NCBI GenBank assembly: GCA_020052515.1
Contig: JAGVOW010000061.1
Location: 8,685 to 72,684, forward strand
Direction: 5' to 3'
Length of the DNA: 64,000 bases
Source: Brevinematales bacterium
GTDB lineage: Bacteria > Spirochaetota > Brevinematia > Brevinematales > JAOACQ01
The notes below the pieces were generated by a model. The model saw only the letters and a list, made by a program, of their open reading frames with translations. It had not been told where the DNA came from and did no database searches. The position numbers and the translations under genes are program-made. Shown piece by piece: positions 5,609 to 37,011 of this stretch. Within the stretch, counting starts at the first letter, position 1; each line of letters begins with the position of its first letter.

Positions 5609-6640
5609 ATGAAAAACAAGGCCTGGAATATTTATTTATTAATTCTCTTCGGTATAGCGGGTTTTATCCTTAATTCCTGCACCATTACTCCTCCACCTTA
5701 TGAGCCTATGCCGCTTCTTCGGGTGGATTCCAACCGAATAGTGGATTCCAAAAACAATGTGATCTTCCTCAAAGGACTGGCCCTGGCTGATCCAGGTGAT
5801 TCAACTATGGCTTCCAACTGGAATATAGATTATTTTCGAAAAGCGAGAGAATGGGGAGCGCAGGTTGTCCGCATTCCTGTTCACCCAACGAACTGGCGCA
5901 CGGTGCCTAATTATTTGACTTTGCTGGATCTGGGAGTAATCTGGGCAAGGGCTTATAGAATGTATGTGATCATTGACTGGCACTCGATCGGCAATCTGCA
6001 AACCCTTAGTTTTCAGGACCCTATGTACGCTACTACCACCAATGAAACGCTTTCTTTCTGGAGACAGATCGCCAGCCGCTATAAAGACGAACCGGCTGTC
6101 GCATTCTATGAAGTGTTTAATGAACCGGATGGAACATTAAGCTGGGGAAGCTGGAAGAATTTTGCTCAGCAGATTGTAAATGAAATATTCCAATATAACC
6201 CAAAGGCTATTCCTCTCGTCAGCGGTGTTAATTACGCTTATAATCTGAGCAGTGTTGGAGGCAGTCCTATTACAAACACCGGAGTGGCTTATTCTGTGCA
6301 CCCCTACCCTGAAAAAACGAATGTGGCTTACCCTGTTTTGGAAGATTCCTGGAACGTGAATTTCGGCTATTTGACAAATCTCTATCCAATTATAGCAACC
6401 GAGTTTGGGTACAAATCATCAACAAATTTTACTTATTATCCTTACCGGGGAACGACCAATTATGGAAACCGGATTGTCAATTATCTCGCGGCAAGGAATA
6501 TGTCATGGACTGTCTGGTGCTTTCATCCCGTCTGGAACCCGACGCTGATTTCGAATTGGAATTTTGATCCTTCTTCTACTGCGGGAGTGTTTTTTAAGTC
6601 GGTTTTAAAGGGATATCCCTATACCGGCCCCGCGGAATAA
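5609..6640 (+). CDS. Glycoside hydrolase family 5 (cellulase-like) lipoprotein
   Basis: Lipobox ILNS-C; VRIPVHP, IIDWH, acid/base FNEP, HPY, nucleophile ATEFG, WTVW. Confidence 0.9.
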   Translation: MKNKAWNIYLLILFGIAGFILNSCTITPPPYEPMPLLRVDSNRIVDSKNNVIFLKGLALADPGDSTMASNWNIDYFRKAREWGAQVVRIPVHPTNWRTVPNYLTLLDLGVIWARAYRMYVIIDWHSIGNLQTLSFQDPMYATTTNETLSFWRQIASRYKDEPAVAFYEVFNEPDGTLSWGSWKNFAQQIVNEIFQYNPKAIPLVSGVNYAYNLSSVGGSPITNTGVAYSVHPYPEKTNVAYPVLEDSWNVNFGYLTNLYPIIATEFGYKSSTNFTYYPYRGTTNYGNRIVNYLAARNMSWTVWCFHPVWNPTLISNWNFDPSSTAGVFFKSVLKGYPYTGPAE

Positions 6641-6666
6641 ACTTAGAAAATGTTGATCAAACCGTT

Positions 6667-6753
6667 TCCCCTCCTGCGGAGGGGTTAGGGGTGGGTCTCG
6701 GACAACTCAAAAGTATCGAGGAAACCCACCCCCAGCCCCTCCCAAGAGGGGAG
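6667..6753. repeat. Family A REPIN-like element (inverted relative to 5430 copy)
   Basis: Right arm is the reverse complement of the left arm of the 5430 copy, with one mismatch in 33 nt. Confidence 0.9.
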
Positions 6754-6794
6754 ATAGCTCGACTTAAATTGATAAAGTGTTTTCGTACAAGCAT

Positions 6795-7922
6795 TTATTT
6801 ATTAACTTTCAATACAACGCCTTTGATTTTAAGGCTTTTCAGCTTGTCCAGGGCGGTTTTCGCTTCTGAAAGGTTTGAGTAATATCCCGTTCTTACCCTA
6901 ATCCATTTTCTCCCTTTTACATGCGCCTCAGAAGTAAAAACCGGAAAACCCTTGCTTTTTAAAAGTTCATAAAGCCCCAGGGCATGGATTTCCTGATGAA
7001 AAGCCCCTGTCTGGATCACATATTCTCCGGTGCCTAAACCTTTCCCTTTTTCCTGAACTGCCTCATTTTTTGTGTTCTTTTCTTCTTCTTTAACTACATT
7101 CTCATTCGAAAGCAAAACTTCCGGAGTTACTTCCAATTCCTTATATTCATCGTTTCCAGCAGAAGGAACCAGATTTGAGGCATCAGGGGTTTTCTCAACG
7201 GGTTCGGACAAAATAAATTCCTCATCGCTTTTGATATCCAGATTGATTTTATTGCTATCGGAAGCGTCCCGTTCTACTATTTTCTCTTCATAGGGAGGAA
7301 CATCGATTACATTGGTTACTGGAACATCTACATAATTGGTCACTCGCACTTGATTACTAACTGTTACCTCTTGTTTATCATTTGTTTTTTGAGAAGAAGA
7401 CCCGGCTGCCACAGAAGGGGCTGGCGCAGGAACAACAGCAACAGGCCCCCCTTCAGGAAGGGTCTGTGCCTCTGCCGGTAAAGAAGGGTTTGAAGAAGCG
7501 GCTTCACTATTTGAAACAGGCGCAGCCTCTCCCTGCGAAGTTTCCGGCTTATTATCCCCAACCTTAATCAGAGTCACTCTCGCGTAAACTGTGCCTTTCT
7601 TTAAAAAGCCCAAATCCTCTGCCGCTTTTCTGGAAACATCCAGAATCCGGTTTTCCACAAAAGGGCCGCGGTCATTAATTTTCACTCTTGTTTTTTTACC
7701 ATTTTCCATATTTTCTATTTCCAATTCAGTTCCAAATGGAAGGTTTTTATGCGCCGCGGTGAGTTTCTGCGGATCATAAACAGCTCCCCCCGCTGTCTTT
7801 TTAGCGGCAAAATCATCGCCATACCATGAAATAATACCGTATAAATATTTTGGAAATTGAGCGAAGGTAGAACAATAGAAAAACAAGACAAATACAAAGG
7901 CAAAAGGCAGTCCTTTTCTCAT
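6795..7922 (-). CDS. rlpA: RlpA family septal-ring lytic transglycosylase with SPOR domain
   Basis: SWYG, TAAHKNLPFG, INDRGPF, RILDVS (DPBB domain). C-terminal IQTGAF..RVRTG SPOR domain. Confidence 0.9.
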   Translation of the reverse strand: MRKGLPFAFVFVLFFYCSTFAQFPKYLYGIISWYGDDFAAKKTAGGAVYDPQKLTAAHKNLPFGTELEIENMENGKKTRVKINDRGPFVENRILDVSRKAAEDLGFLKKGTVYARVTLIKVGDNKPETSQGEAAPVSNSEAASSNPSLPAEAQTLPEGGPVAVVPAPAPSVAAGSSSQKTNDKQEVTVSNQVRVTNYVDVPVTNVIDVPPYEEKIVERDASDSNKINLDIKSDEEFILSEPVEKTPDASNLVPSAGNDEYKELEVTPEVLLSNENVVKEEEKNTKNEAVQEKGKGLGTGEYVIQTGAFHQEIHALGLYELLKSKGFPVFTSEAHVKGRKWIRVRTGYYSNLSEAKTALDKLKSLKIKGVVLKVNK

Positions 7923-8029
7923 GATTTTCCTCCCATACTATCTTATTCTATCGGCATTTTTCAGAAAACCATAATTGACTTTTGCAAAAGAGAAGGGGCA
8001 TGGGTGAGTTTTCTATTTTGGCCGTTAAA

Positions 8030-8058
8030 TTGAAAAAAAAACGAATCTGTGTTATATT
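8030..8058 (+). promoter_or_regulatory. Putative sigma70 promoter of the tamB-bamA-skp operon
   Basis: TTGAAA-N17-TATATT with TGn extended -10. Confidence 0.5.
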
Positions 8059-8103
8059 TTTCTTTGAAGGTATAAACCCCCTTAGGGGGTCATAGGAGAT
8101 GGT

Positions 8104-9627: not shown

Positions 9628-9633
9628 TTTACC

Positions 9634-13782: not shown

Positions 13783-16221
13783 ATGGTTAGGAAAATTACT
13801 ATCAGCGTTCTATCTCTATTAGCGGTTGCTCAAATTTACATGCACTCCGAGGATCGCATTTTTAACAATCCAAAGATTAAAGACATTCAGTTTACAGGGC
13901 TTATTAATACGCATCCGGAAGAAGCAAAGCAGTGGATCGCTTTTAAAATAGGAGACAATCTGTCGGAAAGAAACATCAATGAATCTTTAAAAAAGCTTTT
14001 TTCACTGGATATTTTTAAAGACGCAAAGGTACAATTAACAGAAGATACAAACGGCCTCATCGTAACTTTTGTCGTGGTTGAAAATGCTTATATCCGCCAT
14101 ATCGAGTACCATGGAAATATAAACATCCGAAAAGAAGACCTGGACAAAGAAATCGAATTTACTGAAAACTCTTATTTTACAAAGGCTAAATTAAACAAAT
14201 CGATAAACGCCATTACAAAAAAATATATAGAAGATGGCTTTATCGATATTTCTGTATCTTACAGCCTAAAAGTAGTGGATGTAGTAAAAAACATTTATGA
14301 TTTAAGTTTCAAGATAAATGAAGGCAAGAAAGTTGTCGTAGAAAGAGTTGATATTAACGGCTCAAAAGAAGTGCCTGTGGGTGACATAAAAGGTATTATG
14401 AAAACAAAAGAAAGTTTCTGGATTTTTGTTCCCGGTGTTTTAAAGGAAGAAGAGTTCAGGGAAGACAAGCAAAAAATAATGGATCTTTACAACCAGCGCG
14501 GTTTTATGGATGTGGATATCAAAAGTTTTGAATGGAAGATAGACACTCTGGGCCAGGATAAACACAAAGCAATTGTTGTTTCAATTGAGCTGGTAGAAGG
14601 CAGTAAATACCTTACTGGCAAGACAACAATGAAGGGAAACTCAATTTTTTCTACCGAAGAATTAAGCGGTTTATTAACCTCCAAAGAAGGCGATACTTAT
14701 GACCGAATTAGAATGGATATGATCCGTATGGCTATTTACAACAAATACAGCGACAATGGCCACTTATACGCAAATGTTTCCTTGGTTATGAATAAAAACA
14801 TTACTAACCGGGTAATTGATTCCGAGTTTGTTATAACAGAAGGCCCAAAGGCCCATATTGAAAAAGCAACTGTTTCAGGCAATACAAAAACTCAGGCCTA
14901 TGTGATAGAAAGGGAATTTCTTTTCAAAGAGGGAGAGCTTTATGTTCAGCGCAAGGTCAGGCAGACTTATGAGACGCTGATGCAGCTCCAGTATTTCTCG
15001 GATGTAAAATTCACCCCCTACCCGGGAAGTTCAGAAGGCCTGATTAATCTGGACGTGGAAGTAGAGGAGCAAAGAACAGGAATATTCACAGTCAGTCTTG
15101 GTTATGGAACCGAGAGCGGCTTTAATGTCGGAGCAAGTGTTTCCGAGAAAAATCTTTTTGGAACAGGAAAAGTGGTTTCTTTGAAGGGAGAATGGGGCCA
15201 GAAGCGCCAGCTCATCGAGGTCTCCTTCCAGGAACCATGGCTACAGTGGTTTAAAGAACGGACATCCGCTGGAATTTCCCTTTCTTACGCCCGCTATTTG
15301 TATGACAATATTCCTGCCGACAACAACGGAGACGGCATCATTGATGGAACGGACCTGAATTATATTAACACCCCCTCTCAAACCTTGAGCACTTATACTT
15401 CTACGAACAGCTACACCCACGAAGTAATAGGCCTTGGCTTGAATTTGGGCCGGCGTCTTGCTGTTTATTGGTCGGGCTCATTGGGCTTCGGAATGTCAAT
15501 ATTCCGGGACAGTCTCGCAAATTTCAACAATCCTCTCTATTATTCCACCACCTGGCAGACAAATACCGCTTTGATAGACTCGCTTAATAAGCCGAATTTT
15601 ACTTTTAAAAACAATCTGAGCCTGGGTATCAATCAAAATTCCACAGACAATCCCCTGAATGCTACTTACGGAAGTGTTTTCAGCTTTGACCTGGTTTATT
15701 TCGGCGGAATCGTCGGAGGTGACTCTCAGTTTATTAGGCCGCATCTCTCCTTTGACTATTACTGGAACCCCATCTGGAAAATTGTGCTGGCTTTCCATGG
15801 CTCCGCGGATGTTATGCTGCCTCAGCTGGATGGAAAATTTGCTTATGACTCTTCTGATCTGCTCTATTTTGACGGAATGTATGAAATGCGCGGTTGGCAG
15901 TCCTATCCGATCAGAGGGCAGATCAAGAACTTCTACAGCTCCGAACTCCGGTTCCAGATCTATCAGGAAATCTGGGGCGCCTTTTTCTATGATATGGGCA
16001 ACCTATGGACAACTTACAAGGGTTGGACGCCATTCGGTGGAGATGGATATATCTACAGTTTTGGATTGGGCATAAAAATCAATATACCAATGATTCCTAT
16101 CCGGTTCTATCTTGCTAAAAGAGGATACTATGATTCACCTACCAGGCAATGGTTATTTACGGGTAAGCAGGAATTCTTCAGTGATTGGCAGCCCGTGCTG
16201 ACGATACAAGGACTTTTTTAA
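13783..16221 (+). CDS. bamA: Outer membrane protein assembly factor BamA
   Basis: POTRA repeats (GNTKT..VIERE, L.YF.DV), EEQRTG..SLGYG, SEKNLFGTG, FQEPW, loop-6 MRGW, C-terminal F. Confidence 0.95.
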   Translation: MVRKITISVLSLLAVAQIYMHSEDRIFNNPKIKDIQFTGLINTHPEEAKQWIAFKIGDNLSERNINESLKKLFSLDIFKDAKVQLTEDTNGLIVTFVVVENAYIRHIEYHGNINIRKEDLDKEIEFTENSYFTKAKLNKSINAITKKYIEDGFIDISVSYSLKVVDVVKNIYDLSFKINEGKKVVVERVDINGSKEVPVGDIKGIMKTKESFWIFVPGVLKEEEFREDKQKIMDLYNQRGFMDVDIKSFEWKIDTLGQDKHKAIVVSIELVEGSKYLTGKTTMKGNSIFSTEELSGLLTSKEGDTYDRIRMDMIRMAIYNKYSDNGHLYANVSLVMNKNITNRVIDSEFVITEGPKAHIEKATVSGNTKTQAYVIEREFLFKEGELYVQRKVRQTYETLMQLQYFSDVKFTPYPGSSEGLINLDVEVEEQRTGIFTVSLGYGTESGFNVGASVSEKNLFGTGKVVSLKGEWGQKRQLIEVSFQEPWLQWFKERTSAGISLSYARYLYDNIPADNNGDGIIDGTDLNYINTPSQTLSTYTSTNSYTHEVIGLGLNLGRRLAVYWSGSLGFGMSIFRDSLANFNNPLYYSTTWQTNTALIDSLNKPNFTFKNNLSLGINQNSTDNPLNATYGSVFSFDLVYFGGIVGGDSQFIRPHLSFDYYWNPIWKIVLAFHGSADVMLPQLDGKFAYDSSDLLYFDGMYEMRGWQSYPIRGQIKNFYSSELRFQIYQEIWGAFFYDMGNLWTTYKGWTPFGGDGYIYSFGLGIKINIPMIPIRFYLAKRGYYDSPTRQWLFTGKQEFFSDWQPVLTIQGLF

Positions 16222-24431: not shown

Positions 24432-24890
24432 TCAGTTATTTGTTACTTCTCTCTGGATACTTGAATGCGTAATAGTCATCTTGTCATCATAAGCCCAAAC
24501 CGCCCAGTGATACACGACGCCTCCTCCCGGAAGATTGCTCATACAGCTCCCTTGGATCACTCCTCCGATCATCTGCCTGAAATCGCTAAAACTAACTTCT
24601 CCAGCGGTGCCTTTTAGGCCAGTGGTCCACATCGCGATGCAGTCGTTCTTGTTTTGTATTTTCTTTCCATCTACAGAAATGACGTTGGTAAAAACTCCCA
24701 AAATTTCGTAAGTAGTACCCGGAGACTGCCACTTAAACTCAGGGTTATTGCTGCTTATGGATTTAATCGGCGCTGTAGTCTCGATCAAAATTGTTCCGGA
24801 AAACAAAGGATTTTTCGGCTCTGGAGTTGAATTATCGCAGGAAACCCATAAGAAAACAAATAGAAACAGAAAAAAATAATAATTTTTCAT
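24432..24890 (-). CDS. Hypothetical lipoprotein
   Basis: MKNYYFFLFLFVFLWVS-C lipobox; beta-rich body ending YHWAVWAYD. Confidence 0.7.
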   Translation of the reverse strand: MKNYYFFLFLFVFLWVSCDNSTPEPKNPLFSGTILIETTAPIKSISSNNPEFKWQSPGTTYEILGVFTNVISVDGKKIQNKNDCIAMWTTGLKGTAGEVSFSDFRQMIGGVIQGSCMSNLPGGGVVYHWAVWAYDDKMTITHSSIQREVTNN

Positions 24891-24900
24891 AGCATTCCCC

Positions 24901-26133
24901 CTAAAATCCAATTCTTATACCAATGCCGATCATAACATTCTGCAAAGTTAACTTTTTGTCAGTCGTAGTATAATCGCCAAAGAAATCAAACTTTTTCTCC
25001 TGAAGAGTGATCTCCCCTGGATTCTGGTAAACCGCCTCCAGAAAATAAGAAAATGAGCTGCTTGGGAAAAGAGTCAGCCCCACGATAGCTTTGTAATAAA
25101 AAAAAGTGGAAGAAAAATCCAAAAACGGTAAAACTCCCACACCGACGCCGAGATAAGGTGAAAGTATCCTGGAAGTGCCGAAGAAATGATATTTTAACAG
25201 AAAATTTAATCGATGGTAATACAAAAGGCTATTTTCCTCAAACGCTTTGCCCGGAGCGCTTGTGTCTTTATAGCCATGCGTATAGATATAGCCGCCTATT
25301 TCCCCTCCAAAAGAAAGGCCAAAATCCCAATAATATTCAAAGGAAAAACCCCAGTCTATTTGATAATCCGGAGAAAACAGCTCAAACATATGGGAGAAAA
25401 ATGAAATTCTACTGTTATAAAAAATTTGATTTTTCTGCTCTAAGTAAAAATTATAACTACTCTTTTGGTTCTCTGCTATCTCAAAAGAAACGTCCTTAAC
25501 TTCATAACCCTCTTTCACAATACTAACAGAATACCTGCCCGCTTTCATTTTCTTCCCGGTAATCGGCGTAACACCGATCTGCACACCATCAATCTTTACT
25601 TCAGATCCTTGCGGCGTGCTGTCACAATCCAAAAACCCAAACTTTTGATTCAAGAGCTTAATGATTATAGCGTCCGAAAGTTCATTGATTTTTGCAAAAA
25701 GCTGATTCCCCATTTTTTCGGTGATTTTTTCAGCTAGCAGAACCTCTCCCGTATCAGACCGAACCAACCTCGCGTTTATTTCAATTCTATCGTCAATGCT
25801 GGAAAAACTTCCCATTACCAGATTATCCGCCTTTAAAAGAACACCGATTTTTTTGCCCTTTGAGACATCCTCTTCCACCAGGCCTGACAAAACCAGCTTT
25901 TTTTCCTCTATCAGGTCAGAAAGCCTTTGCCTCTCAACAAGATTAAACTTGCCGCACTTCTGAAGAGATGTCATGACGGATTCCGCAATGGTTTTCTCTA
26001 AAAAATCATACCCTTTGTTTTTTGAAATATTAATAAAATCCAAAACCGCCAGCGTTGATTGGTTTGTAGTTTCATTTCCATGCAAAGGAAGAAACGGCAG
26101 TAAAATCAAAAATGCGATTAAGATTTTTTTCAT
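24901..26133 (-). CDS. CsgG/FlgO-like + PEGA domain protein with C-terminal beta-barrel
   Basis: Signal peptide; LAVLDF..LVERQRL..ADNLVMGS..INARLV..TGEV; PEGA motif STPQGSEVKIDG..GVTP; SPYLGVGVG and terminal IGIRIGF. Confidence 0.75.
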   Translation of the reverse strand: MKKILIAFLILLPFLPLHGNETTNQSTLAVLDFINISKNKGYDFLEKTIAESVMTSLQKCGKFNLVERQRLSDLIEEKKLVLSGLVEEDVSKGKKIGVLLKADNLVMGSFSSIDDRIEINARLVRSDTGEVLLAEKITEKMGNQLFAKINELSDAIIIKLLNQKFGFLDCDSTPQGSEVKIDGVQIGVTPITGKKMKAGRYSVSIVKEGYEVKDVSFEIAENQKSSYNFYLEQKNQIFYNSRISFFSHMFELFSPDYQIDWGFSFEYYWDFGLSFGGEIGGYIYTHGYKDTSAPGKAFEENSLLYYHRLNFLLKYHFFGTSRILSPYLGVGVGVLPFLDFSSTFFYYKAIVGLTLFPSSSFSYFLEAVYQNPGEITLQEKKFDFFGDYTTTDKKLTLQNVMIGIGIRIGF

Positions 26134-26301: not shown

Positions 26302-27234
26302 TTAAAAATTAATTTTATCCTCAATAATAAACTCCGGCCTATGCTTTACTTCGTCAAAAATACTGCCAATGTATTCGCCCAGAACACCAATGGTGAGAAG
26401 CTGAACGCCTCCAAAAAACACGACACTGATAATCAACGATGCCCAGCCGGAAGCGGTTTTGTGAAGAATAAAAGCGAAAACAGTGTAAATACTGAGGCCC
26501 AAGCCCACCAGAATAGACAAGAACCCTAAAGTCATGGCCAATTTTAATGGTTTCTTGCTGAAATACAAAAGCCCATTGGTGGCAAACTGGATCATTTTAG
26601 AAAGCGGGTATTTTGTCTCCCCCGCAAAACGGGCATCCCGCGCATAATAAACCGGTGTCTGTTTAAAACCAGCCCAGCTGATTAAACCGCGAATATATTT
26701 GTGCGTTTCCTTCATGCTTTTAAAAGCATCCATCACCTTCCGGCTGATAAGCCTGAAATCTCCGGTGTCTAATGGAAGCGGAACATCCGACAGAAAATTG
26801 ATCACTCTATAAAAGAGCTTCGCGGTGATTTTTTTGAAGAAACTTTCTCCCTTTCTTTCCCTGCGGACGCCGTAAACCACATCATTGCCTTCCAGATAAA
26901 GCCTGACCATCTCAGGGAACAATTCCGGCGGGTCCTGAAGGTCCGCGTCAATAATAATGGCCACGTCCCCAGAAACAGATTGAATACCCGCTGAAACAGC
27001 CGGCTGGTGGCCAAAATTGCGTGAAAAAGAGATGGCCTTTACTTTTTTGTCAGCCGCGGCGATTTTTTTCAAAATTTTCAAAGTAGCATCCGTGCTTCCA
27101 TCGTTGATATAAAAAATCTCATAATCCTTGTAAGCATTGTCTTTCATTACTTTTGTGACCCTTTTATGCGTCGCTTCAATTACTTGTTCTTCATTGTAGC
27201 ATGGAATAATGACCGAAATTTTTAAATTAGCCAT
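26302..27234 (-). CDS. Glycosyltransferase family 2 (GtrB/ArnC-like polyprenol-phosphate glycosyltransferase)
   Basis: SVIIPCYNEE, INDGSTD, SRNFGHQ, IDADLQDPPE, DTGDFRL, two C-terminal TM helices. Confidence 0.93.
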   Translation of the reverse strand: MANLKISVIIPCYNEEQVIEATHKRVTKVMKDNAYKDYEIFYINDGSTDATLKILKKIAAADKKVKAISFSRNFGHQPAVSAGIQSVSGDVAIIIDADLQDPPELFPEMVRLYLEGNDVVYGVRRERKGESFFKKITAKLFYRVINFLSDVPLPLDTGDFRLISRKVMDAFKSMKETHKYIRGLISWAGFKQTPVYYARDARFAGETKYPLSKMIQFATNGLLYFSKKPLKLAMTLGFLSILVGLGLSIYTVFAFILHKTASGWASLIISVVFFGGVQLLTIGVLGEYIGSIFDEVKHRPEFIIEDKINF

Positions 27235-28345
27235 TTTCAACAACTCCTATGATTTTCTCCAGCGCCTCTTTTATTTCCCCGTTCTCTATAGAAAAAGAAT
27301 AATTGCGTCCTTGATGATAAACCATGCCCAACTCTTTGAGCATCACCACACGGATACTTCCAGCTTTATTTTTCTTATCCAATTTAGCTGAGCGGAAAAA
27401 AGAATCTTCATTCATATTTTTTAGCTCATCAGTAAAACATAAAAGCCCATAATCTTTAATCAATTTGCCAATTTTCTCAAAATCATCTTCCGCTAATATT
27501 CCCCTTTGTACAGATAGCGCCGCTTCCGCGATCATTCCCATTGCTACCGCAAAGCCATGAGGAATAGCATAATTCATTGCGTTCTCTATCGCATGGCCTA
27601 TCGTATGCCCAAAATTCAAAATCTGACGCAAAGACCTTTCTTTTTCGTCTTTTTGTACCACTTCCGCTTTGATTTGACAGCTTCTGGCAATCATTTCCGT
27701 AAGAAACGGCTCAGAAAGCATCCTTATACTTTCTCTATTCTCGTAGAGAAATTTAACATAATTTTTGTCTTTTATCAAGGCATGCTTAATTATTTCCGCC
27801 ATTCCATTGGTAAATTCCGCTTCAGGCAGGGTTTTCAAAAAATCTGTATCCATGATAACTGCCTTCGGCTGATAAAAGCTTCCCAAAAGGTTTTTGCCTT
27901 CTTTTGTGTCCACGCCCGTCTTTCCGCCAATCGAGCTGTCAACCATCGCCAGAAGGCTGGTCGGCACCTGGATAAAAGGCACCCCGCGCAGATAAATAGA
28001 CGAAAGAAACCCGGTCATATCTCCCGTCACACCGCCGCCTAAAGCAATTATGAGAGAATGCCTATCCAATCCAGCGCTGGAAAGATTTGAAAAAAGCTCC
28101 AGAATGACAGCCATGTTTTTTTGGGCTTCTCCGGCGGAGAAAGAAAAAACTTCCGCGGAGGGCAGCGCCTTTTGAATTTTATCCCGATAGAGCTTTAAAA
28201 TATTGGAATCAGTCACAATCGCTATCTTTGAAGGGGCCAATCGACTCACTTCGGCTTGAAGCCGATTTTCGAAGATCCCTTCGCCGATGTAAATAGAATA
28301 AGAATTATTCAAAAATCTTTTCAATTTGAGGTTAATTTTCCGCAT
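27227..28345 (-). CDS. aroB: 3-dehydroquinate synthase
   Basis: GGGVTGD, PTSLLAMVDSSIGGKTG, KNLLGSFYQP, LNFGHTIGHAIE, HGFAVA, DKK. Confidence 0.96.
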   Translation of the reverse strand: MRKINLKLKRFLNNSYSIYIGEGIFENRLQAEVSRLAPSKIAIVTDSNILKLYRDKIQKALPSAEVFSFSAGEAQKNMAVILELFSNLSSAGLDRHSLIIALGGGVTGDMTGFLSSIYLRGVPFIQVPTSLLAMVDSSIGGKTGVDTKEGKNLLGSFYQPKAVIMDTDFLKTLPEAEFTNGMAEIIKHALIKDKNYVKFLYENRESIRMLSEPFLTEMIARSCQIKAEVVQKDEKERSLRQILNFGHTIGHAIENAMNYAIPHGFAVAMGMIAEAALSVQRGILAEDDFEKIGKLIKDYGLLCFTDELKNMNEDSFFRSAKLDKKNKAGSIRVVMLKELGMVYHQGRNYSFSIENGEIKEALEKIIGVVENG

Positions 28346-28366: not shown

Positions 28367-28690
28367 TCAGACTTTTAATAATGTAAATTCTTTGCTTTTA
28401 TTGTGTCTTTTTTTTGGATATACTTTGATTTCCATGCCCATTCCAATGTCTTCTAAATAACCAATTAAAGTCGAAACTTTCATATCTTTTCTTGTTTCCA
28501 ATCTTGAAATGCTGGACTGAGAAAATGATTTTATTTGTTCTTGTTTATACCCCATATTTTTTCTGAGTTCTGATAATCTAATCTTAAATATTTCTTTGTC
28601 AGCATTTATCTTTGCCCTTTCAATTCTTTCAGGAGGCAACAGTAAGGACAATTCATCCAAGAAATCTTTTCTGCTATTTTTTTCTTTCAT
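28367..28690 (-). CDS. XRE-family HTH antitoxin (HigA-like)
   Basis: LSELRKNMGYKQ..SQSSISRLETRKDMKVSTL; overlaps the upstream toxin. Confidence 0.85.
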   Translation of the reverse strand: MKEKNSRKDFLDELSLLLPPERIERAKINADKEIFKIRLSELRKNMGYKQEQIKSFSQSSISRLETRKDMKVSTLIGYLEDIGMGMEIKVYPKKRHNKSKEFTLLKV

Positions 28691-29036
28691 GTTTTTTCTC
28701 CAATTCTTTTAAATGTATATCATATAAATAATCTGCTTTAGGTAACATTTCCTTGTAAAAATTTTTATTTCCTTTTTTATCTCCACCAATTAGAAGTATA
28801 GCATTCCTTTCAGGATCAAAAGCAAAAAATATTCTGTAGACTCTTTGTTTATTTTGAACTCTTAATTCTTTCATATTTTTGTGTTTACTTTCATAAATTG
28901 TATCAACATAAGGTCTGCCAAGAGATGGCCCAATGTTTTTTAGTATAATAAGATGCTGTAATACAGCTTCTTTAGCATCTTCATCTAATTTTTTGATCCA
29001 ATTGATTATTTCTTCAGTTCTTTCAATAATCCACAT
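28674..29036 (-). CDS. RelE/ParE-superfamily toxin (HigB/Gp49-like, DUF891)
   Basis: GPSLGRPYVDT, NMKELRVQ, RIFFAFDP.R.AILLIGGDK; toxin-first order. Confidence 0.88.
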   Translation of the reverse strand: MWIIERTEEIINWIKKLDEDAKEAVLQHLIILKNIGPSLGRPYVDTIYESKHKNMKELRVQNKQRVYRIFFAFDPERNAILLIGGDKKGNKNFYKEMLPKADYLYDIHLKELEKKHERKK

Positions 29037-29445: not shown

Positions 29446-30429
29446 CTACTTGAGGCTCAATCCTTGCAATTTTTGGTGCCAATTCCATGCCGTTCTGATG
29501 ATTTCTTCCAGGGAATACTTCGGCTTCCAGCCCAGTGTTTTTGAAACTTTATCACTTTTCGCTATGAGATAAGGCGGATCTCCGGCCCTTCTTTCGGTTT
29601 CAATGACTTTAAAATCCTTCCCAGTAACTTTCTTCACTACCTGGATCATTTCCCTCACCGAAAAGCCATCCCCTATTCCCAGATTAAAGTAATTTGTCGC
29701 TCCGCCATCCAGCAGGTACTTTAATCCCAGAATATGAGCTTCCGCAAGGTCAAAAACATGGACATAATCCCTTACAGCCGTTCCGTCTTTTGTCTCATAA
29801 TCCGTGCCAAAAACCTTGATGCTTTCTCTTTTTCCAGCGGCCGCGTCCAGAATCAGCGGAATCAAATGCGTTTCAGGTACATGCGCCTCCCCTATCTCTT
29901 TATCAGGGTCCGCTCCAGCCGCATTGAAGTAGCGGAAGCGTATGGTTTTTAATCCGTAAGCCGCGGAATAATCCTCCAATATTTGTTCGATCATCCATTT
30001 GGTCCGTCCGTAAGGATTGATCTGAATCTTTCTATCGTCTTCCTCGATCGGCATTTTCTCCGGCATTCCATAAACAGCCGCTGTTGAGGAAAAAATAAAT
30101 TTATTAACATTGTGCCTGCGCATTGCTTCCAGAAGGTAAATAGTATTACGCAAATTGTTCTGGTAATACTTTTCCGGTTCAATCACCGACTCGCCTACTT
30201 CAATAAAAGCGCAGAAATGCATAGCCGCTTCGATCTTATACTTCGAAAAGACCAGTTCCAATTGGACTGGATCACCGACATCCCCGGGAATAAAATCGCC
30301 CCACCTCGCAAAATCACGGTAACCCCGGCAGAGATTATCGTAAACGATGAGCTGAAAGCCCTGCTGAGAAAGTTTTTTGCACACATGACTGCCGATATAG
30401 CCTGCACCGCCCGCCACTAGAATCGCCAT
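29446..30429 (-). CDS. galE: UDP-glucose 4-epimerase
   Basis: GGAGYIGSH, VGESV..PEKYY, FSSTAAVYG, PYGRTK, RYFNAAGA, VRDYVHV. Confidence 0.96.
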   Translation of the reverse strand: MAILVAGGAGYIGSHVCKKLSQQGFQLIVYDNLCRGYRDFARWGDFIPGDVGDPVQLELVFSKYKIEAAMHFCAFIEVGESVIEPEKYYQNNLRNTIYLLEAMRRHNVNKFIFSSTAAVYGMPEKMPIEEDDRKIQINPYGRTKWMIEQILEDYSAAYGLKTIRFRYFNAAGADPDKEIGEAHVPETHLIPLILDAAAGKRESIKVFGTDYETKDGTAVRDYVHVFDLAEAHILGLKYLLDGGATNYFNLGIGDGFSVREMIQVVKKVTGKDFKVIETERRAGDPPYLIAKSDKVSKTLGWKPKYSLEEIIRTAWNWHQKLQGLSLK

Positions 30430-30511: not shown

Positions 30512-30523
30512 GTCTCTCTATCA

Positions 30524-30663: not shown

Positions 30664-31971
30664 ATGGGTCATTTTAAGAACGTCTTCTGCTTTGCTTTTG
30701 TAGCTGTCTCTGTCTTTTGTTTAACCAGATTATATGCTATTGTCATTGACGGCACAAATGATTTTACGGATGATGGCCGGATTCTCACTACCACAGCCGG
30801 TTATACCAACTGGATCCATTGGGACAGCAATGTGCTTTACATTGGTTATTACGGCGAAGATGTGGACGCTAACATAGACACAACGATGCTCCTGGTCTAT
30901 TTATCCACAAATGTCGACAGCGGAAGTGCTTATGGGGAAATTTTCGATAGCCAGCGGCCGGTACTGCCATTCAAAGCAGACACTGTTTTTCAATACATTA
31001 CTACCAACGGATGGAGAAGCGCCAGCTGGGACGGAACAGCCTGGAATTGGGACAATGCCCTGGGTGTTACATCCAATGATCTAAAGGCAATTGGAAACTT
31101 TTTAGAGTTTTCCATAGCTAAATCTAACTTAAATGACACTCCCTACCTTGCTATCTACCTTCAATTTGTTAATAGCGCAGCGAGTTATGGCGCGATACCA
31201 TCTGGCACATTAGCAGATGGTTTTAAGAGCAATCCTTCAAATTTTATTTCTTTCGGCACAGATATTTGGCTGACAAACGCAGTTTCTTCATCCAATATTT
31301 ACCGGACAAACGACAATGTCTTTGTTTTATCGAATAACTTACTCGCTCCTGCAAATTATCAAACCAATGTCTGGGGAGAAAATATCGTCCTTTCCAATTA
31401 CGCCGCAGACGACATCGGCATATTCAAAATAGAATTTTGCACCAATTCCGGTATTTATTCTACTACTTACACAAGCAACACAAACACCCCTTATACTTCG
31501 ATTCTGGACACCTCACTTCTAAATTCCGGGACTTACCAGATTTATTCGATAGCCTATGATACAAGAAACAGCCTTTATTCCACCAGTAATATTCTGGAAA
31601 TATTGTCCGCTCCTGATTTGAGTATCACAAAGACCGTAGACAGTATTGAGCTTCTTTCTACTAATTTTTGCTGGCCGGGGTCTTTAGTCACTTACAAAAT
31701 CACTTACTCCAACCTCGGAACGGGATACGCGACCAATGTGGTTATTTTTGAAAGAATTCCAGGACAGGCCGCTTATTACACAAATTATCCGGGAAGCGGC
31801 ACAACGGATTGGCAGACAGAATTTGCACACATTCCCAACCCTGACCAGACCTATGATTCAGCGGATTACGATAGCGCTATTTCCAATATCAAATGGGTCA
31901 GATGGAAAAAGGCCAGCCTCGCGGCCGATGAAGATAATAAAACGATATTTTTAGGAGTTACCATTGATTAA
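30664..31971 (+). CDS. Secreted protein: DOMON/CBM9-like N-domain, Ig-like domain, C-terminal DUF11 domain
   Basis: Signal peptide; IDGTNDF..WDSNVLYIG..LEFSIA; DLSITKT..PGSLVTYKITYSNLG..ATNVVI.E.IP. Confidence 0.7.
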   Translation: MGHFKNVFCFAFVAVSVFCLTRLYAIVIDGTNDFTDDGRILTTTAGYTNWIHWDSNVLYIGYYGEDVDANIDTTMLLVYLSTNVDSGSAYGEIFDSQRPVLPFKADTVFQYITTNGWRSASWDGTAWNWDNALGVTSNDLKAIGNFLEFSIAKSNLNDTPYLAIYLQFVNSAASYGAIPSGTLADGFKSNPSNFISFGTDIWLTNAVSSSNIYRTNDNVFVLSNNLLAPANYQTNVWGENIVLSNYAADDIGIFKIEFCTNSGIYSTTYTSNTNTPYTSILDTSLLNSGTYQIYSIAYDTRNSLYSTSNILEILSAPDLSITKTVDSIELLSTNFCWPGSLVTYKITYSNLGTGYATNVVIFERIPGQAAYYTNYPGSGTTDWQTEFAHIPNPDQTYDSADYDSAISNIKWVRWKKASLAADEDNKTIFLGVTID

Positions 31972-32025
31972 TGATAAATATTATGTTGCGGTATTACCGA
32001 TAAAATAATAAAATAACGACAGCAC

Positions 32026-32063: not shown

Positions 32064-32081
32064 ATATTGAGGAAGAGGGCT

Positions 32082-33548
32082 ATGAATAAAATTTTGTTAT
32101 TGATTCTATTACTGTTTTTTAGTGCTCGCACTTTGTTTTCAAATATCAAAATCCAAAATGTAATTTCGGATCTAAAGGATTACAATCACTTAATGGACGA
32201 CAAAGCTGACACTTTCGCCGCCGCAAAAAAGGGCACAAACACCGTCATTATTCAGCTGGGAAGCATTAAATACATAAAGAATTTGAAAATCTATTTGAAA
32301 GAAAAAACGTTGATCAAAAATATTTCACTTTATTCTTCCGATAATTTCATCGAATGGAGTAATATATTAGAGAGAAAGAATGTAAAAGAAAACATACTGA
32401 CTTTTGAACTGACAGACCTTTCTGCTCTTTTTATAAAAATAGTTATCCAGGCAGATTCAGAACTTCTTATTCAAGAAATTGAATGCAGTGAAAACCCCGC
32501 TCCGAAAAATTCCCTATTCAACATTAAAGCAGAAAATATTACTGAAAATTCCGCGCTGGTAAAGTGGGAAACAAAAATCAAGACCGAAGGCTTTTTCGTT
32601 TATTCTAAAAAAGTGAAGGGGACGAAAATGACTTTGCTGGAAATGGACTACAAAAACAAGCATTCTGTTCAATTGAAGGGCCTTTTAAAAGGCACAGAAT
32701 ACACATACAACATTATCAGTCAATCCCCGGATGGCACAAAAATAGAAAGCGAGTTGAAAGAATTCAGGACAAAGGGAATTCCCTTTCCGGATATATGGGA
32801 ACTGAAGGCGGTGAGCATCACTCCCTTCGCGGCAAAGATGGCCTACCGGTCCAATATTCCCACAAAGTACCAGGTGCTTCTCGGCCAGAATAAAAAGAAA
32901 ATGGATAAAATTATAGATGAAAAGCAAATGGCTGAGGAAAAGACGTTTGATGTTCTGGGGCTCCAGCCGGAAACCGTTTATTTTTATCAATTAATCTTAA
33001 CCGACCAATTTGGAAATGTCGCGATGACACCGCCGCTTGAATTTAAAACACCGCCTAATAATATCGCTTTGGGGAAAAAAGTAGTTGGAACATTTAATTT
33101 TGTAGATGAAGACATTAAAAGAAGAGGCTTTGGAGAAAGTACCATTGAGAAAGTAGTGGATGGAAATTTAAATTATTTCGGCGGAATGGCGCTTTCTTAC
33201 AATGCTGACAATGCGGATCAATACATTATTATTGATCTCGAGAAGCCAGAACCCATTCAGAGAATAGAATTATATTGGTGGGGGTTATCCTACTCTAGAG
33301 ATTATAAAATTGACTTAAGCGATAATGGCATGGATTGGTTTACCGTAAAAGACCACATAGACGCTGAACAGGGTTTTGACATTGGTTCTCCGGGAGGGGA
33401 TTATCTGGTAGAGCATTCCGTCCAGATCAAAAAGACCGCCAGATTGGTCAGAGTTTTTATAAAAGCAGGAAATACCCGGGGATCAAAAGTAAAGAAGTGG
33501 AATCCGCGCCAAAATCTTTATTTATGCGAGATTGCGGTAATTAAATAG
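32082..33548 (+). CDS. Secreted discoidin (F5/8 type C) + fibronectin type III protein
   Basis: Signal peptide; ITENSALVKW..GLLKGTEYTY and GLQPETVYFY FN3 repeats; NIALGKKV..DG..QYIIIDL..YKIDLSDNG.DW..EIAV. Confidence 0.8.
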   Translation: MNKILLLILLLFFSARTLFSNIKIQNVISDLKDYNHLMDDKADTFAAAKKGTNTVIIQLGSIKYIKNLKIYLKEKTLIKNISLYSSDNFIEWSNILERKNVKENILTFELTDLSALFIKIVIQADSELLIQEIECSENPAPKNSLFNIKAENITENSALVKWETKIKTEGFFVYSKKVKGTKMTLLEMDYKNKHSVQLKGLLKGTEYTYNIISQSPDGTKIESELKEFRTKGIPFPDIWELKAVSITPFAAKMAYRSNIPTKYQVLLGQNKKKMDKIIDEKQMAEEKTFDVLGLQPETVYFYQLILTDQFGNVAMTPPLEFKTPPNNIALGKKVVGTFNFVDEDIKRRGFGESTIEKVVDGNLNYFGGMALSYNADNADQYIIIDLEKPEPIQRIELYWWGLSYSRDYKIDLSDNGMDWFTVKDHIDAEQGFDIGSPGGDYLVEHSVQIKKTARLVRVFIKAGNTRGSKVKKWNPRQNLYLCEIAVIK

Positions 33549-33562
33549 ACAGGAGGCTGATT

Positions 33563-34654
33563 ATGAAGAAGGCAATGCTTTTAAGTCTAATAGTTTGCGT
33601 AACAACTGTTTTTATTCTCGGTATTTTTGTTTTTGCTCCATGGGGGGAAAGGCATTTAGGGGCAGTCACCAGCGCCGGGGTGATTCTTACCAACATTGTC
33701 CAGGTAAATTGGAATAGCGGATCTATTGGGTTGTCAACCAACGCGACAAACGTTTCCGCCGCTGTAGGGACAAACTACGGTATGACCTGGATCGGAATGA
33801 CTAACCAGGAAGTGGTTTCCGGTTACAATACATCAAATGAGACCTATCTCACCAATGACGGCAACGCCACCGCTGATTTTATCCTTAGCTTTAACAGCAA
33901 TGTCTCGGCTAATGCCAGTTCGACCGTATGGGCAATCGCTTTTACGAACGTAACTTCCGGCGGCGCCTCTAGCGATACTCTCAGAGTGACACTTTCTCCA
34001 GCGGGCGGAGTAAATGTTCGGTTATTGGTAAATGTGCCCGGTAATGAAACAAACGGGGCCTTTGTTCTGTTTCAATGTCTGGCATCGAATTCAAACGCTT
34101 CCGCTGAAATAGGCGCGAACGCCACAAATTATGTAGGCTTCAATGGAACAGCTTACGGAGGGAATATGGGTAAGTATGGCGCAGGGGCGGGAAATGCCTT
34201 TCTGACAAACGCCGACGCGGATTTTACAAACTGGGCCGTCACCGTAGTGTTCGCCGATATTCAGCTTTCAAAGACCGCAGAAATCAGCAACGCGGATCCT
34301 TTTGCCGCTAATACTACCGACCCCTTCCCGGGCGCTTTGATCACTTACAAGCTGCAGTTTACCAACCGGGGTAACGCCGATGGTTCGTCTGTAAAAATCA
34401 TAGACTCTATTCCCACGAATTATCTCACCTATACACTTGGTTCTATTAAGAAGGGTCCCTATGGAAGTGCTTTTTCTACCTACGGCTCCCTTAGCGGCCT
34501 TTCTGATACTGAAGGAGACGATGACGGTTCATCCAATTCAGCCGCCGCGGACCAGTTGGTGTTTTGCCCGACCAATGGAACAGCTCCGGCAACCGGCGGT
34601 GTAGTAAACAAAGCGGACGGCGGCACATATTTTTACCGGACTTATTTGAAATAA
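33563..34654 (+). CDS. Secreted DUF11-domain protein
   Basis: N-terminal hydrophobic leader; TSAG.ILTN motif; IQLSKT..PFPGALITYKLQFTNRG..V.IIDSIP. Confidence 0.75.
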   Translation: MKKAMLLSLIVCVTTVFILGIFVFAPWGERHLGAVTSAGVILTNIVQVNWNSGSIGLSTNATNVSAAVGTNYGMTWIGMTNQEVVSGYNTSNETYLTNDGNATADFILSFNSNVSANASSTVWAIAFTNVTSGGASSDTLRVTLSPAGGVNVRLLVNVPGNETNGAFVLFQCLASNSNASAEIGANATNYVGFNGTAYGGNMGKYGAGAGNAFLTNADADFTNWAVTVVFADIQLSKTAEISNADPFAANTTDPFPGALITYKLQFTNRGNADGSSVKIIDSIPTNYLTYTLGSIKKGPYGSAFSTYGSLSGLSDTEGDDDGSSNSAAADQLVFCPTNGTAPATGGVVNKADGGTYFYRTYLK

Positions 34655-34663
34655 TTTGGTAAC

Positions 34664-34761
34664 CCGCCTCACCCCCCGGCCCCCTCTCCAAGTCTGGAGA
34701 GGGGGTGAAGAAAGACTCCCCCTTTTCCGCGAGTGGGGAAGGGGGATGGGGGGTGAGGCGG
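34664..34761. repeat. Family B palindromic element
   Basis: CCGCCTCACCCCCC...GGGGGGTGAGGCGG with two internal hairpins. Confidence 0.85.
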
Positions 34762-34778
34762 CTGGGCGGTAAAATACT

Positions 34779-35789
34779 ATGAAATTTATTTTGATTTTGT
34801 CTTTCATATTTATACAATTGAATCTTCATGCGTCTGTCCAGCTGATTGGAATGGATGGCTGGATTGCCGAAGTAGAAATAAATAAAACGGCTTTTAAAAA
34901 AAAACCTATTCTTTTTTTAACTTATAATGATAAAATCACAAACATTGAGTTTTTTCTGGAAGATACAAACCATTATCAGGTGAAATTAAATCTGCCGGAC
35001 GGTTATTACGATTATCTGATCAAAGACAGCGAAAAAAACATCCTGGAAAAGGGAAAATTAGATTTAATCCCCCCTTTTACCATAAATATTAAAGAAATTG
35101 CCTCAGATCACATTGGGGTAACCGCACAAGCCAAGAGTTTAGAATTCATAGATGCCTATTTGTACCTCAGCAATGAGATGTTAACCAATCAGAAAGTTCT
35201 TTTCACTCAGCAAAAGAACGCTTTTGATTTCTTTCATCTGGCGTCCGGCACTTTGTATACCCTGGAATGTAAAGCAAAAAATTATCTTGAAAGAAAAGAA
35301 TTTAAGACCCTATTAAAAAATATTGCCTTGAACAAGCCGGTAACCGGAACATTTACAAAATTGCCGGAGAGTAAATTTGTTGATGATTCATCTCCGGTCA
35401 TTAGCAGAATCAACGACGGAAAGATAAACTGGCTATCCGGCATGGCCGCCAGCGGCGAAGTGAACGCGAACGAGCAATATGTTTTCATTAATCTATTAAA
35501 ACAGTCCAATTTGAAAGAAGTCAAAGTCTATTGGCATGCCTATTATAACCCATTAAAATATTCTTTCTACTTCAGCCTGGATGGGACAAATTGGAACACA
35601 ATTGAGAGAAGCACCAACCAATGGATGAAAAAAATCGCCCCCGATAATACACCAGTCATAGTGGACCATTTAGAGACCAATATGAGCGCTCAATATATAG
35701 GCATTATTATTAAAAAAGGAGAAAAAATAAAAAACTCTCTTTCTCTCAAAAATTATCTGGAGTTATTGGAGATAGAAGCCTATGAGTAG
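34779..35789 (+). CDS. Secreted FN3-discoidin protein (paralogue of the 32082 C-terminus)
   Basis: EFKT..NIALNKPVTGTF, NDG.INW.SGMA, EQYVFINL, FSLDGTNW, EIEAY. Confidence 0.75.
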   Translation: MKFILILSFIFIQLNLHASVQLIGMDGWIAEVEINKTAFKKKPILFLTYNDKITNIEFFLEDTNHYQVKLNLPDGYYDYLIKDSEKNILEKGKLDLIPPFTINIKEIASDHIGVTAQAKSLEFIDAYLYLSNEMLTNQKVLFTQQKNAFDFFHLASGTLYTLECKAKNYLERKEFKTLLKNIALNKPVTGTFTKLPESKFVDDSSPVISRINDGKINWLSGMAASGEVNANEQYVFINLLKQSNLKEVKVYWHAYYNPLKYSFYFSLDGTNWNTIERSTNQWMKKIAPDNTPVIVDHLETNMSAQYIGIIIKKGEKIKNSLSLKNYLELLEIEAYE

Positions 35790-37011
35790 ATGGCTATTCC
35801 TATTCACTTTTATCATTCCTTTGAGCTTGAACGCGCTGCCCAGTAAAGGCGCTTCTGTCTTCACAAACACGATGGGGTTAAACCTCAATGGCTTTTTTAT
35901 GGGCCAGACCAATTTGTCGCTGACAGTCGGAACTTTTTATGGCCTAAGCCCTCTTGTTTCCTCCAGCAGTGTTTATGGGGCATATCCAAATTTTGAACTG
36001 AAAATTCCTATGAGCATTACCAATAATGCCAATGACGCAGACAGCAATGTCCAGATTCTTGTCGAATTTTTAAGTAATAACGCCGGGTATTCGGGCAGCA
36101 ACTGGAATTACTCTCTGGAAGTAAGCTCCGTAACTCAGGGGACAAACTATTCCATTCCAACCGCCAGCTTTGGAGAAGGCGCGATTTTTAATTTCAACCT
36201 GGTGGTCTATATCCCTTTAGTCTGCCTGGAAAGTTCTAGCGGATTTTTACGGGTAACTGCCTTTACTGCCAGCAATTCCAATCACATTGCCGCACAATAC
36301 ACTGGTTACAATGGCCTCCCCTACGGAGGGAATGCTTCCTCATCAAAAGTCGTTCAAATCAGCATATCCCTTCCAAATCAGATCGTCAATCTTTACGCTG
36401 AGGATGATATTGATAGGATCAATTTGTTTAACGGCCTATCTGGATTACGCCGCTCGCAAAACTCTTTCTTTGTAGAATTCGTCAATAGCCCAATTGACTT
36501 AAACAGCGTTCGTTTATGGTACGCTTTAGACAGCATTGCTGACGGAAACATTGGGCCAAACACCGCTGACAACTTTATCTCTATGAAAAGCATTACGCCA
36601 AAAAAATACAGCGGTTTGATTCAAGAAGAAATGCTGAAACAGGGCAAAATTTTGTCTTTTATCTTCGAAATAGACGGAATTGCTTATCTCACAAACTGGA
36701 CCTACAAACTCCTGGATTTAGGGGCTCAGGATAAATACCAGTCCGTTTTAATGCATAATATTATCAGTTACAAAACAGTTGATAATATTTTGATAAAGCT
36801 TCCCGGCATTTTAGTCGGCAAGGAAGGGAAAGTCAATATTTACTCTATCAGCGGCGATCTAGTAAAGGTTTTGCTCAGTGGAAAAGCAGACGCTCAAATA
36901 ATAAAATGGGATGGCAAAGATAAGGCCGGAACGTGGGTATCAAAAGGGATGTATTTTATTGTCATCGATTTTGCCGACGTAAAAGAGGTGAGAAAGACCT
37001 ATGTGAAGTGA
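35782..37011 (+). CDS. Secreted protein with C-terminal FlgD-Ig / T9SS-CTD-like domain
   Basis: Signal peptide; N-domain paralogous to 33563 (YxGxNGxxYGG); C-terminus VNIYSISGDLVKVL..IKWDGKD..G..VSKGMYFIVI..KEVRKTYVK. Confidence 0.75.
   Translation: MSRWLFLFTFIIPLSLNALPSKGASVFTNTMGLNLNGFFMGQTNLSLTVGTFYGLSPLVSSSSVYGAYPNFELKIPMSITNNANDADSNVQILVEFLSNNAGYSGSNWNYSLEVSSVTQGTNYSIPTASFGEGAIFNFNLVVYIPLVCLESSSGFLRVTAFTASNSNHIAAQYTGYNGLPYGGNASSSKVVQISISLPNQIVNLYAEDDIDRINLFNGLSGLRRSQNSFFVEFVNSPIDLNSVRLWYALDSIADGNIGPNTADNFISMKSITPKKYSGLIQEEMLKQGKILSFIFEIDGIAYLTNWTYKLLDLGAQDKYQSVLMHNIISYKTVDNILIKLPGILVGKEGKVNIYSISGDLVKVLLSGKADAQIIKWDGKDKAGTWVSKGMYFIVIDFADVKEVRKTYVK

Follow-up and report, generated by a model that had tools for sequence, protein, structure and literature searches.

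The stretch analysed here, hereafter the window, comprises 64,000 nucleotides from the genome of a Brevinematales bacterium and lies on contig C45 of an assembly (G000; 2.6 Mb in 114 contigs, 99.6% complete) that carries four FlaA genes and whose LeuS finds its best matches, at 59–61% identity, in Spirochaetales/Treponema metagenome-assembled genomes, two features that assign it to the spirochaetes. The GC content, measured on the window itself, is 41.5%. Between positions 5609 and 37011 the window encodes a series of exported proteins in which threonine is followed by asparagine (T-N, counted as TN) more often than asparagine is followed by threonine (NT), the 13 signal-peptide proteins of this span summing to 62 TN and 20 NT (Table 1). 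The original prediction for this locus held that S/T-N dipeptides mark sites of a general modification outside the cytoplasm. Its hand counts for the proteins beginning at 33563, 30664 and 35782, for the GH5 protein and BamA, and for the cytoplasmic controls PFOR (TN 3, NT 2) and LeuS (TN 2, NT 5) were all exact on retranslation. Pfam supported the GH5, RlpA-SPOR, TamB, BamA, GT2 and GalE-like epimerase labels in the window, and Pfam and NCBIfam bore out the reported adjacency of galE and a GtrB/PgfS-like GT2 gene to the TN-rich cluster.

Table 1. Features of the window, with dipeptide counts where available
Feature	Position	Strand	TN	NT	Remarks
GH5 cellulase-family lipoprotein	5609..6640	+	7	1	PF00150
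RlpA-like (DPBB + SPOR)	6795..7922	-	3	1	linker SN 7, NS 1
BamA	13783..16221	+	4	4	illustrates the housekeeping envelope proteins, neutral for TN
Small lipoprotein-like open reading frame	24432..24911	-	2	0	no Pfam or NCBIfam match
GT2 polyprenyl-phosphate sugar synthase-like (PgfS/GtrB/ArnC-like)	26302..27243	-			PF00535; candidate donor-making enzyme
Two small overlapping open reading frames (107 and 120 residues)	28367..29036	-			between a DHQ-synthase-like gene and galE; may be toxin-antitoxin-like
GalE-like NAD-dependent epimerase	29446..30429	-			PF01370 + PF16363
Exported DUF11 / Big_7 protein	30664..31971	+	12	2	SN 12, NS 4
Exported fn3 + F5/8 type C (discoidin) protein	32067..33548	+	1	2	internal counter-example inside the cluster
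Exported DUF11/TIGR01451-repeat protein, 363 residues	33563..34654	+	14	2	densest in the window
Exported F5/8 type C protein	34779..35789	+	6	2	
Exported protein, weak FlgD_ig-like C-terminus	35782..37011	+	5	2	
Exported TPR + CBM48-like protein	37090..38661	+	4	1	just outside the 5609-37011 span
682-residue, 13-segment membrane protein	46566..48614	-			sub-cut-off matches to UmpA and UmpB Na,Li,K/H+ antiporter subunits; looks like a fused UmpA/UmpB form

Analysis of the whole genome revealed that the asymmetry is a property of exported proteins. We called 2275 genes with a crude codon-usage model of our own and sorted their products by a simple, equally crude rule based on signal peptides and hydrophobic segments, which gave 487 exported proteins, 550 membrane proteins and 1238 cytoplasmic ones; counts for exported proteins leave out the first 30 residues. 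The exported set contained 1223 TN and 638 NT (observed/expected (O/E) 2.01 vs 1.05; binomial p 2e-42), compared with 797 and 859 in the cytoplasmic set and 574 and 542 in the membrane set. The TN/NT ratio was 1.92 for exported and 0.93 for cytoplasmic proteins, and the proposal that the order of the two residues is selected was thus sustained when the proteome was split by signal peptide. TN/NT showed the largest asymmetry of the 190 residue pairs in the exported set (z 13.6; next 8.5) and TN was its most over-represented dipeptide (next O/E 1.57), whereas in the cytoplasmic set TN ranked first by neither measure. Indeed, TN alone separated exported from cytoplasmic proteins strongly (z 14.7; next 4.9).

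The same pattern was apparent protein by protein. TN outnumbered NT in 231 exported proteins, NT outnumbered TN in 95 and the two were equal in 161, the corresponding cytoplasmic numbers being 283, 336 and 619. With expectations computed per protein, TN O/E was 1.90 for exported and 0.99 for cytoplasmic proteins, the cytoplasmic value lying at 0.97–0.99 overall. In the reverse test, 66 of the 81 proteins with a TN minus NT difference of at least 4 fell in the exported class, which holds 487 of all 2275 proteins, and several of the remaining 15 were cut at a contig end or had an overlooked signal peptide. Signal peptides themselves were neutral (26 TN and 26 NT in the first 30 residues of exported proteins). 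TN sites were spread evenly along exported chains, with up to 14 sites per 363 residues, and TN counts were overdispersed among exported proteins (chi2/df 2.4). The T-N excess is real, directional, exerted at the protein level and specific to exported proteins.

Neither nucleotide bias nor paralogy explained these counts. The hexamer ACNAAY occurred 1223 times in frame 0 of exported genes, compared with 218 and 108 times in frames 1 and 2, and codon choice at TN was identical in the exported and cytoplasmic compartments, excluding a nucleotide-level cause. Paralogous families were rejected as the cause because the excess held in the 312 singleton proteins (TN 691, NT 377); taking one protein per cluster left 857 TN vs 454 NT, with TN in the majority in 166 clusters and NT in 71. 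Contig C95 is a mirror-image duplication whose gene order is palindromic around ~21.86 kb, and a PBP1-like gene is present twice, on opposite strands, on C85 (1334-3835 and 11572-14073); both are probably assembly artefacts, and as a result a few genes were counted twice.

The dipeptide was chemically strict. Among all X-N and T-X pairs of the exported set only T-N was raised (2.01; next 1.26). The inclusion of S-N in the original prediction did not survive genome-wide counting: exported proteins contained 876 SN and 939 NS, and even the 66 most TN-biased proteins were neutral (268 vs 258), so S-N was rejected as a second form of the signal, its excess being local to two or three window proteins. 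In low-charge exported proteins O/E was 0.98 for S-N, 0.65 for T-D, 0.55 for T-Q and 0.76 for T-S; the word requires Thr and not Ser, and Asn and not Asp or Gln. T-Q was depleted in exported proteins as a whole (O/E 0.67 vs 1.02 in cytoplasmic proteins; 352 Q-T vs 181 T-Q), and T-D was depleted in family relatives (0.71 exported vs 1.04 cytoplasmic). Asn looks as if it displaces other polar residues after Thr. The word was also distinct from described sequons, as had been claimed: only 222 of 1210 TN sites continued with X-S/T, as the N-X-S/T sequon would demand, and the dipeptides of the Bacteroidota D-S/T motif were unremarkable in exported proteins (O/E 0.90 for D-T, 0.98 for D-S).

Within the exported set, the excess rose as charged-residue content fell (Spearman -0.40), TN O/E reaching 2.42 in the least-charged quarter of proteins compared with 1.34 in the most-charged quarter, and lipoproteins showed 395 TN and 165 NT vs 828 and 473 in other exported proteins. 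Among 20 TN-rich proteins scanned, the named families were BspA-type leucine-rich repeat, Kelch, PKD, Big_7, PEGA, ankyrin, GH26 and GH51-like, and 8 of the 20 had no Pfam family at E <=0.001. In absolute terms, two adjacent giant low-charge proteins of ~2580 residues each (C15:13772-29266; TN 78, NT 26 and TN 76, NT 27) carried more TN than any others encoded in the genome. A TN-rich paralogous lipoprotein family (C32:22288-24072, C67:8537-10321, C98:21009-22778, C50:13590-15233 and C67:10387-11166) shared a Ser-rich linker that follows the lipobox Cys, together with a common C-terminal '..V(I/V)DE(L/I/M)M(L/F)I..'; of its scanned members, two had a PKD-like domain and a third had Big_7 domains.

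Structure models placed TN in several settings. In the AlphaFold2 (AF2) model of the window GH5 protein (predicted local distance difference test (pLDDT) score 92.9), three of the seven TN sites lay in first turns of helices, one lay at a helix end and the other three lay in loops; the contexts are varied and probably exposed. In a 13-sequence alignment of the family of the 363-residue protein at 33563, Asn was invariant at 9 of the 14 TN sites, and Thr alternated with Ser at several. Its AF2 model has TN closing predicted strands at residues 97-98, 128-129 and 267-268, placements that are tentative because the model is poor (pLDDT 57).

Comparisons with homologues show that TN sites were gained on conserved folds, independently of the fold itself. 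The 119 nearest homologues of the window GH5 protein, all at <=46% identity by BLASTP and mostly from other phyla where named, together contained 70 TN and 84 NT, averaging 0.59 TN per homologue vs 7 in the window protein. At 6 of its 7 TN sites, TN was outside the eight commonest pairs among these homologues, whose residues there were mostly polar or charged (A-D, R-E, E-P, E-T, K-Q, A-R). Similarly, a GH51-like lipoprotein elsewhere in the genome carried 8 TN and 1 NT, or 1.48 TN per 100 residues, compared with 0.30 TN and 0.21 NT per 100 residues in 150 homologues, and at none of its 8 TN sites was TN among the seven commonest pairs of the 100 closest homologues aligned. The original prediction would have been refuted by a matching TN load in homologues from unrelated phyla, but homologues in other lineages did not show one. 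Orthologues within the family point to purifying selection on TN in exported proteins. In 76 exported orthologue pairs, 47% of aligned TN sites were retained, compared with 16% of NT sites; retention was 64% for Asn following Thr (other Asn, 47%) and 52% for Thr preceding Asn (other Thr, 40%). The corresponding figures for 217 cytoplasmic pairs were 50% for TN and 43% for NT. Because the exported and cytoplasmic ratios differ and homologues are unmatched, the order T-then-N is selected in this lineage and in this compartment.

The lineage distribution was examined by sampling ~200 kb from each relative and applying the pipeline used for the study genome. All four sampled members of the same family (f1) were positive, with exported TN/NT counts of 176/87 (G011), 153/67 (G001), 40/21 (G006) and 82/50 (G004); these relatives span GC contents of 31–58%, their cytoplasmic ratios were near 1, and TN was again the lone outstanding dipeptide in the exported-versus-cytoplasmic contrast (z 10.5; next 5.6). 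A second family of the order, f5, represented by one genome (G015, 200 kb), was also positive (132/82; 56/24 and 34/15 in its low-charge exported classes), and family f4 gave an equivocal 40/31 (G014). No TN excess was detected in families f2, f3 and f6, with one genome each (G012 52/59, G013 66/67, G016 42/55), or in three lineages elsewhere in the phylum (G058 15/30, G042 9/24, G132 28/45), and in these negative lineages no dipeptide stood out in the exported-versus-cytoplasmic contrast. Low-charge exported proteins of TN-negative spirochaetes were likewise unbiased (44/43 and 33/61), as was a set of 140 exported proteins taken from 74 loci in a mix of other bacteria (149/161), excluding a universal property of exported or low-charge proteins. 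The relatives are not independent samples, so the lineage pattern amounts to one or two evolutionary events.

Because the cause of the excess is specific to a compartment and a lineage, independent of fold, chemically strict and conserved, it would be best sought in a reader outside the cytoplasm. T-N has been under selection and stays conserved in the mature portions of the proteins that this spirochaete family exports by Sec, most strongly in low-charge lipoproteins and surface or secreted proteins. In the mechanism we propose, it would be read by a component working outside the cytoplasm, most likely an enzyme that covalently modifies Thr or Asn. The nearest precedent would be a membrane GT-C enzyme that glycosylates proteins with a polyprenyl-phosphate sugar as donor, or a Wzy_C-type enzyme acting by en bloc transfer; both kinds of transferase are encoded in the study genome, and the PgfS/GtrB-like GT2 gene adjoins galE. 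Shielding or stabilisation would then be what surface proteins gain from such dense marking. A putative covalent-modification sequon read outside the cytoplasm is the best reading of T-N, tentatively held, and is ranked first because the Bacteroidota O-glycosylation motif is its nearest precedent. More doubtful, though possible, is its specific form, in which a minimal and strict Thr-Asn sequon would direct a general modification of surface proteins by a writer outside the recognised bacterial oligosaccharyltransferases, in this family and probably in a second family of the order.

Several results weigh against modification. The search for GT-C enzymes advocated in the original prediction was productive in part: PMT, PMT_2, TMEM260-like and Wzy_C proteins were present, but STT3 was not and none of the candidates tested tracked the trait. 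The STT3/PglB family (PF02516) had 0 matches in the 99.6% complete study genome, and in the control it matched in 4 archaea. The genome carries five PMT_2 matches, a TMEM260-like GT-C protein and Wzy_C proteins (three above the Pfam cut-off and two identical weak matches on the mirrored contig C95), as well as a GT39 PMT + PMT_4TMC protein (G000:C36:7041-8492; PF02366 6e-28, PF16192 1e-18). The GT39 type with PMT_4TMC was present in 11/11 family relatives, 0/19 other genomes of the order and 21/301 genomes of the phylum, and only Corynebacterium matched among 14 control genomes. However, TN-negative G042 and G132 carry full-length orthologues (44% and 47% identity), and TN-positive G015 of f5 has no PMT, leading us to reject the GT39 PMT as a necessary or sufficient writer; TN-negative G058 had a PMT_4TMC family match, yet no match to the study-genome PMT protein used as query.

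Other transferases fared similarly in distribution tests that covered the TMEM260-like protein, two PMT_2 types, three Wzy_C proteins and the window GT2 protein. The TMEM260-like protein was found in 30/31 genomes of the order, TN-negative families included, and was rejected as trait-specific. Two PMT_2 types (a 730-residue type and a C5/C89 type) were rejected as patchy, one occurring in 3/11 family relatives and the other in 6/11 and in 3/4 f4 genomes. Wzy_C orthologues occurred in f1 (11/11), f2 (1/1), f3 (2/2), f4 (4/4), f5 (3/4) and f6 (5/8) and could not be trait-specific either; a third Wzy_C protein (C106) had no relative in any of 30 genomes and is unique to the study genome. The window GT2 protein scored 324 bits against NCBIfam PgfS, vs a 500-bit cut-off, and was below the curated ArnC cut-off too. 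Its orthologues were 62–71% identical in 11/11 family relatives, other families having <=45% or none, and it was rejected as a trait-tracking enzyme because f5 has no high-identity orthologue. The trait is thus not accounted for by the occurrence of any candidate transferase tested; altered specificity of an enzyme that the lineages share may underlie it.

The distribution of TN among envelope proteins also counted against a modification of general reach, and this aspect of the original prediction failed. The 20 TN-poor proteins scanned were mostly housekeeping envelope machinery (two secretins, two TonB receptors, a TolC-like protein, PBP1, a solute-binding protein, a SurA-like peptidyl-prolyl isomerase, an HlyD-like protein and an M16 peptidase), and a GH9, a GH16 and a subtilase were TN-poor as well. 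The loops of 217 multi-pass membrane proteins, with topology predicted from the positive-inside rule only, were unenriched (98/90 outside, 91/88 inside). Were modification general throughout the periplasm, housekeeping envelope proteins should bear some trace of it. Furthermore, residues flanking TN in the exported set deviated no more than ~1.5-fold, apart from the rare Cys (up to 1.7) and Trp (up to 2.0), and gapped T-x-N was near 1.0, so a longer motif around TN was rejected. Gene calls, signal-peptide calls and topology were all home-made heuristics.

Two gene neighbourhoods involving these transferase families were apparent from coordinates. A TMEM260-like gene lies within ~1.5–4 kb of an orthologue of Wzy_C (O-antigen-ligase/PglL-like) in five family genomes (G011:C4, G006:C2, G010:C14, G003:C5, G008:C3), and also on G000:C95; the two may form a conserved module for envelope glycans. 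In five relatives (G011:C2:79442-81915, G002:C14:251590-254103, G005:C7:254033-256518, G014:C1:1024321-1026813, G018:C1:671887-674218), an orthologue or homologue of the window GtrB/PgfS-like GT2 gene directly adjoins a PMT_2 (ArnT-like) GT-C gene, whereas G000 has these two genes on different contigs.

T-N could instead be a structural motif, without modification, that ends strands and helix first turns in stable low-charge extracellular proteins. The invariant Asn and strand-end TN of the 33563 family fit a structural role just as well as a modified site, the DUF11 consensus presumably contains a 'vtN.G' turn, 4 of the 7 GH5 sites are at helix ends, and the excess grows as charge falls. However, the same folding physics operates in the cytoplasm, where TN O/E is unremarkable, and the low-charge exported proteins of other spirochaetes are unbiased; GH5 and GH51-like homologues of the same fold lack the sites, which in the GH5 model occupy several different structural contexts. 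Turn and capping motifs, moreover, usually tolerate S for T and D for N, and neither S-N nor T-D was raised. We consider a purely structural origin unlikely. Non-covalent recognition, whether by a sorting, chaperone or surface-export reader (for example, one directing lipoproteins to the surface) or as protection from a protease of the lineage or its habitat, is unlikely to a similar degree. Lineage and compartment specificity suit a cellular reader as well as an enzyme, and such a reader would be consistent with the strength of the excess in lipoproteins, with the TN richness of accessory surface-type families (BspA-type leucine-rich repeat, PKD, Big_7, Kelch and glycoside hydrolases) and with the weak or absent excess in the loops of inner-membrane proteins and in the machinery of the periplasm or outer membrane. 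Against this, as many as 14 evenly spread sites in 363 residues would be unusual for a sorting signal, our analysis identified no candidate reader, and no sorter or chaperone is known to read a dipeptide.

It is highly improbable that the excess arose as a by-product or artefact of composition, of nucleotide bias, of a handful of paralogous families or of mistaken gene and signal-peptide calls. The crude gene calling and signal-peptide rule, the genes counted twice on C95 and C85 and the overdispersion of TN counts would favour such an origin. Yet composition cannot produce an order effect, and the contrast between compartments persisted with per-protein expectations; the excess was restricted to frame 0, held from 31% to 58% GC and remained in singletons. 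Misclassification of proteins can only dilute the signal, and the same pipeline was silent in 6 other spirochaete genomes and in the mixed bacterial loci. The remotest of the alternatives is N-glycosylation of the classical PglB type, in which T would occupy position -1 of an N-X-S/T sequon. In exported proteins, Asn after T precedes X-S/T slightly more often than other Asn (18.3% vs 13.8%; p 3e-5), but Ile was as enriched as S or T two residues past Asn, 988 of 1210 TN sites lacked X-S/T, and the 99.6% complete genome had no STT3 family match. Covalent modification at T-N remains, on balance, the reading we favour.

The accessible portion of the MatureP paper mentions only a general Asn/Tyr/Ser richness of exported mature domains. 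Our literature search, whose scope excluded subscription-only papers and supplements, returned no T-N sequon, no T-N bias in secreted proteins and no general protein modification or glycosylation system for spirochaetes. The phyletic pattern, with a positive family and negative sister families, makes phylogenetic profiling a way to look for the gene responsible, and the window offers ready substrates in the GH5 protein with 7 sites and the 363-residue protein with 14. If T-N proved to be a transferable minimal sequon, it would be of interest to protein glycoengineering.

Comparison with known systems reveals partial likenesses. Actinobacterial GT39 Pmt, which uses a polyprenyl-phosphate-mannose donor, acts on Sec-exported proteins and lipoproteins, and the study genome similarly encodes a PMT + PMT_4TMC protein, beside a GT2 that resembles polyprenyl-phosphate sugar synthases but scores below the curated cut-offs. 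Spirochaetes with 44–47% identical PMT orthologues are TN-negative and a family without PMT is TN-positive; actinobacterial PMTs are not known to have a T-N preference. PglL/Wzy_C enzymes perform general periplasmic O-glycosylation in many Gram-negative bacteria, and Wzy_C-family proteins are present in the study genome; unlike a trait-specific writer, however, orthologues of this type also occur in TN-negative families. According to one source (PMC12645811), PglL/Wzy_C-type enzymes prefer disordered stretches rich in Ala/Pro/Ser and have no defined sequon.

The closest parallel is found in Bacteroidota. According to a 2025 review (PMC12871550), D-(S/T)-(A/I/L/V/M/T) is the only known motif-driven bacterial O-glycosylation; the motif is enriched in that phylum's non-cytoplasmic proteins, the glycoproteins are mainly periplasmic and membrane proteins, and the transferase is still undiscovered. 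Like this motif, T-N is short, specific to a compartment and a lineage, and present at many sites per protein. Unlike it, T-N uses Thr only and requires Asn afterwards, and it shows no excess in inner-membrane loops (98/90) or housekeeping periplasmic proteins. A further word of this kind, short, lineage-specific and found in exported proteins, would indicate a spirochaete envelope process not yet described; if the modification reading is true, T-N, known here from its sequence statistics alone, would represent only the second motif-driven general bacterial protein glycosylation known, or a new kind of modification. A further parallel is the Q-rule of Bacteroidetes, described in its source (PMC10653852) as pyroglutamate at the mature N-terminus of exported proteins and tied to an envelope enzyme. 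Like the Q-rule, T-N is a lineage-wide sequence rule confined to exported proteins, but where the Q-rule concerns a single N-terminal position, T-N occupies many internal sites.

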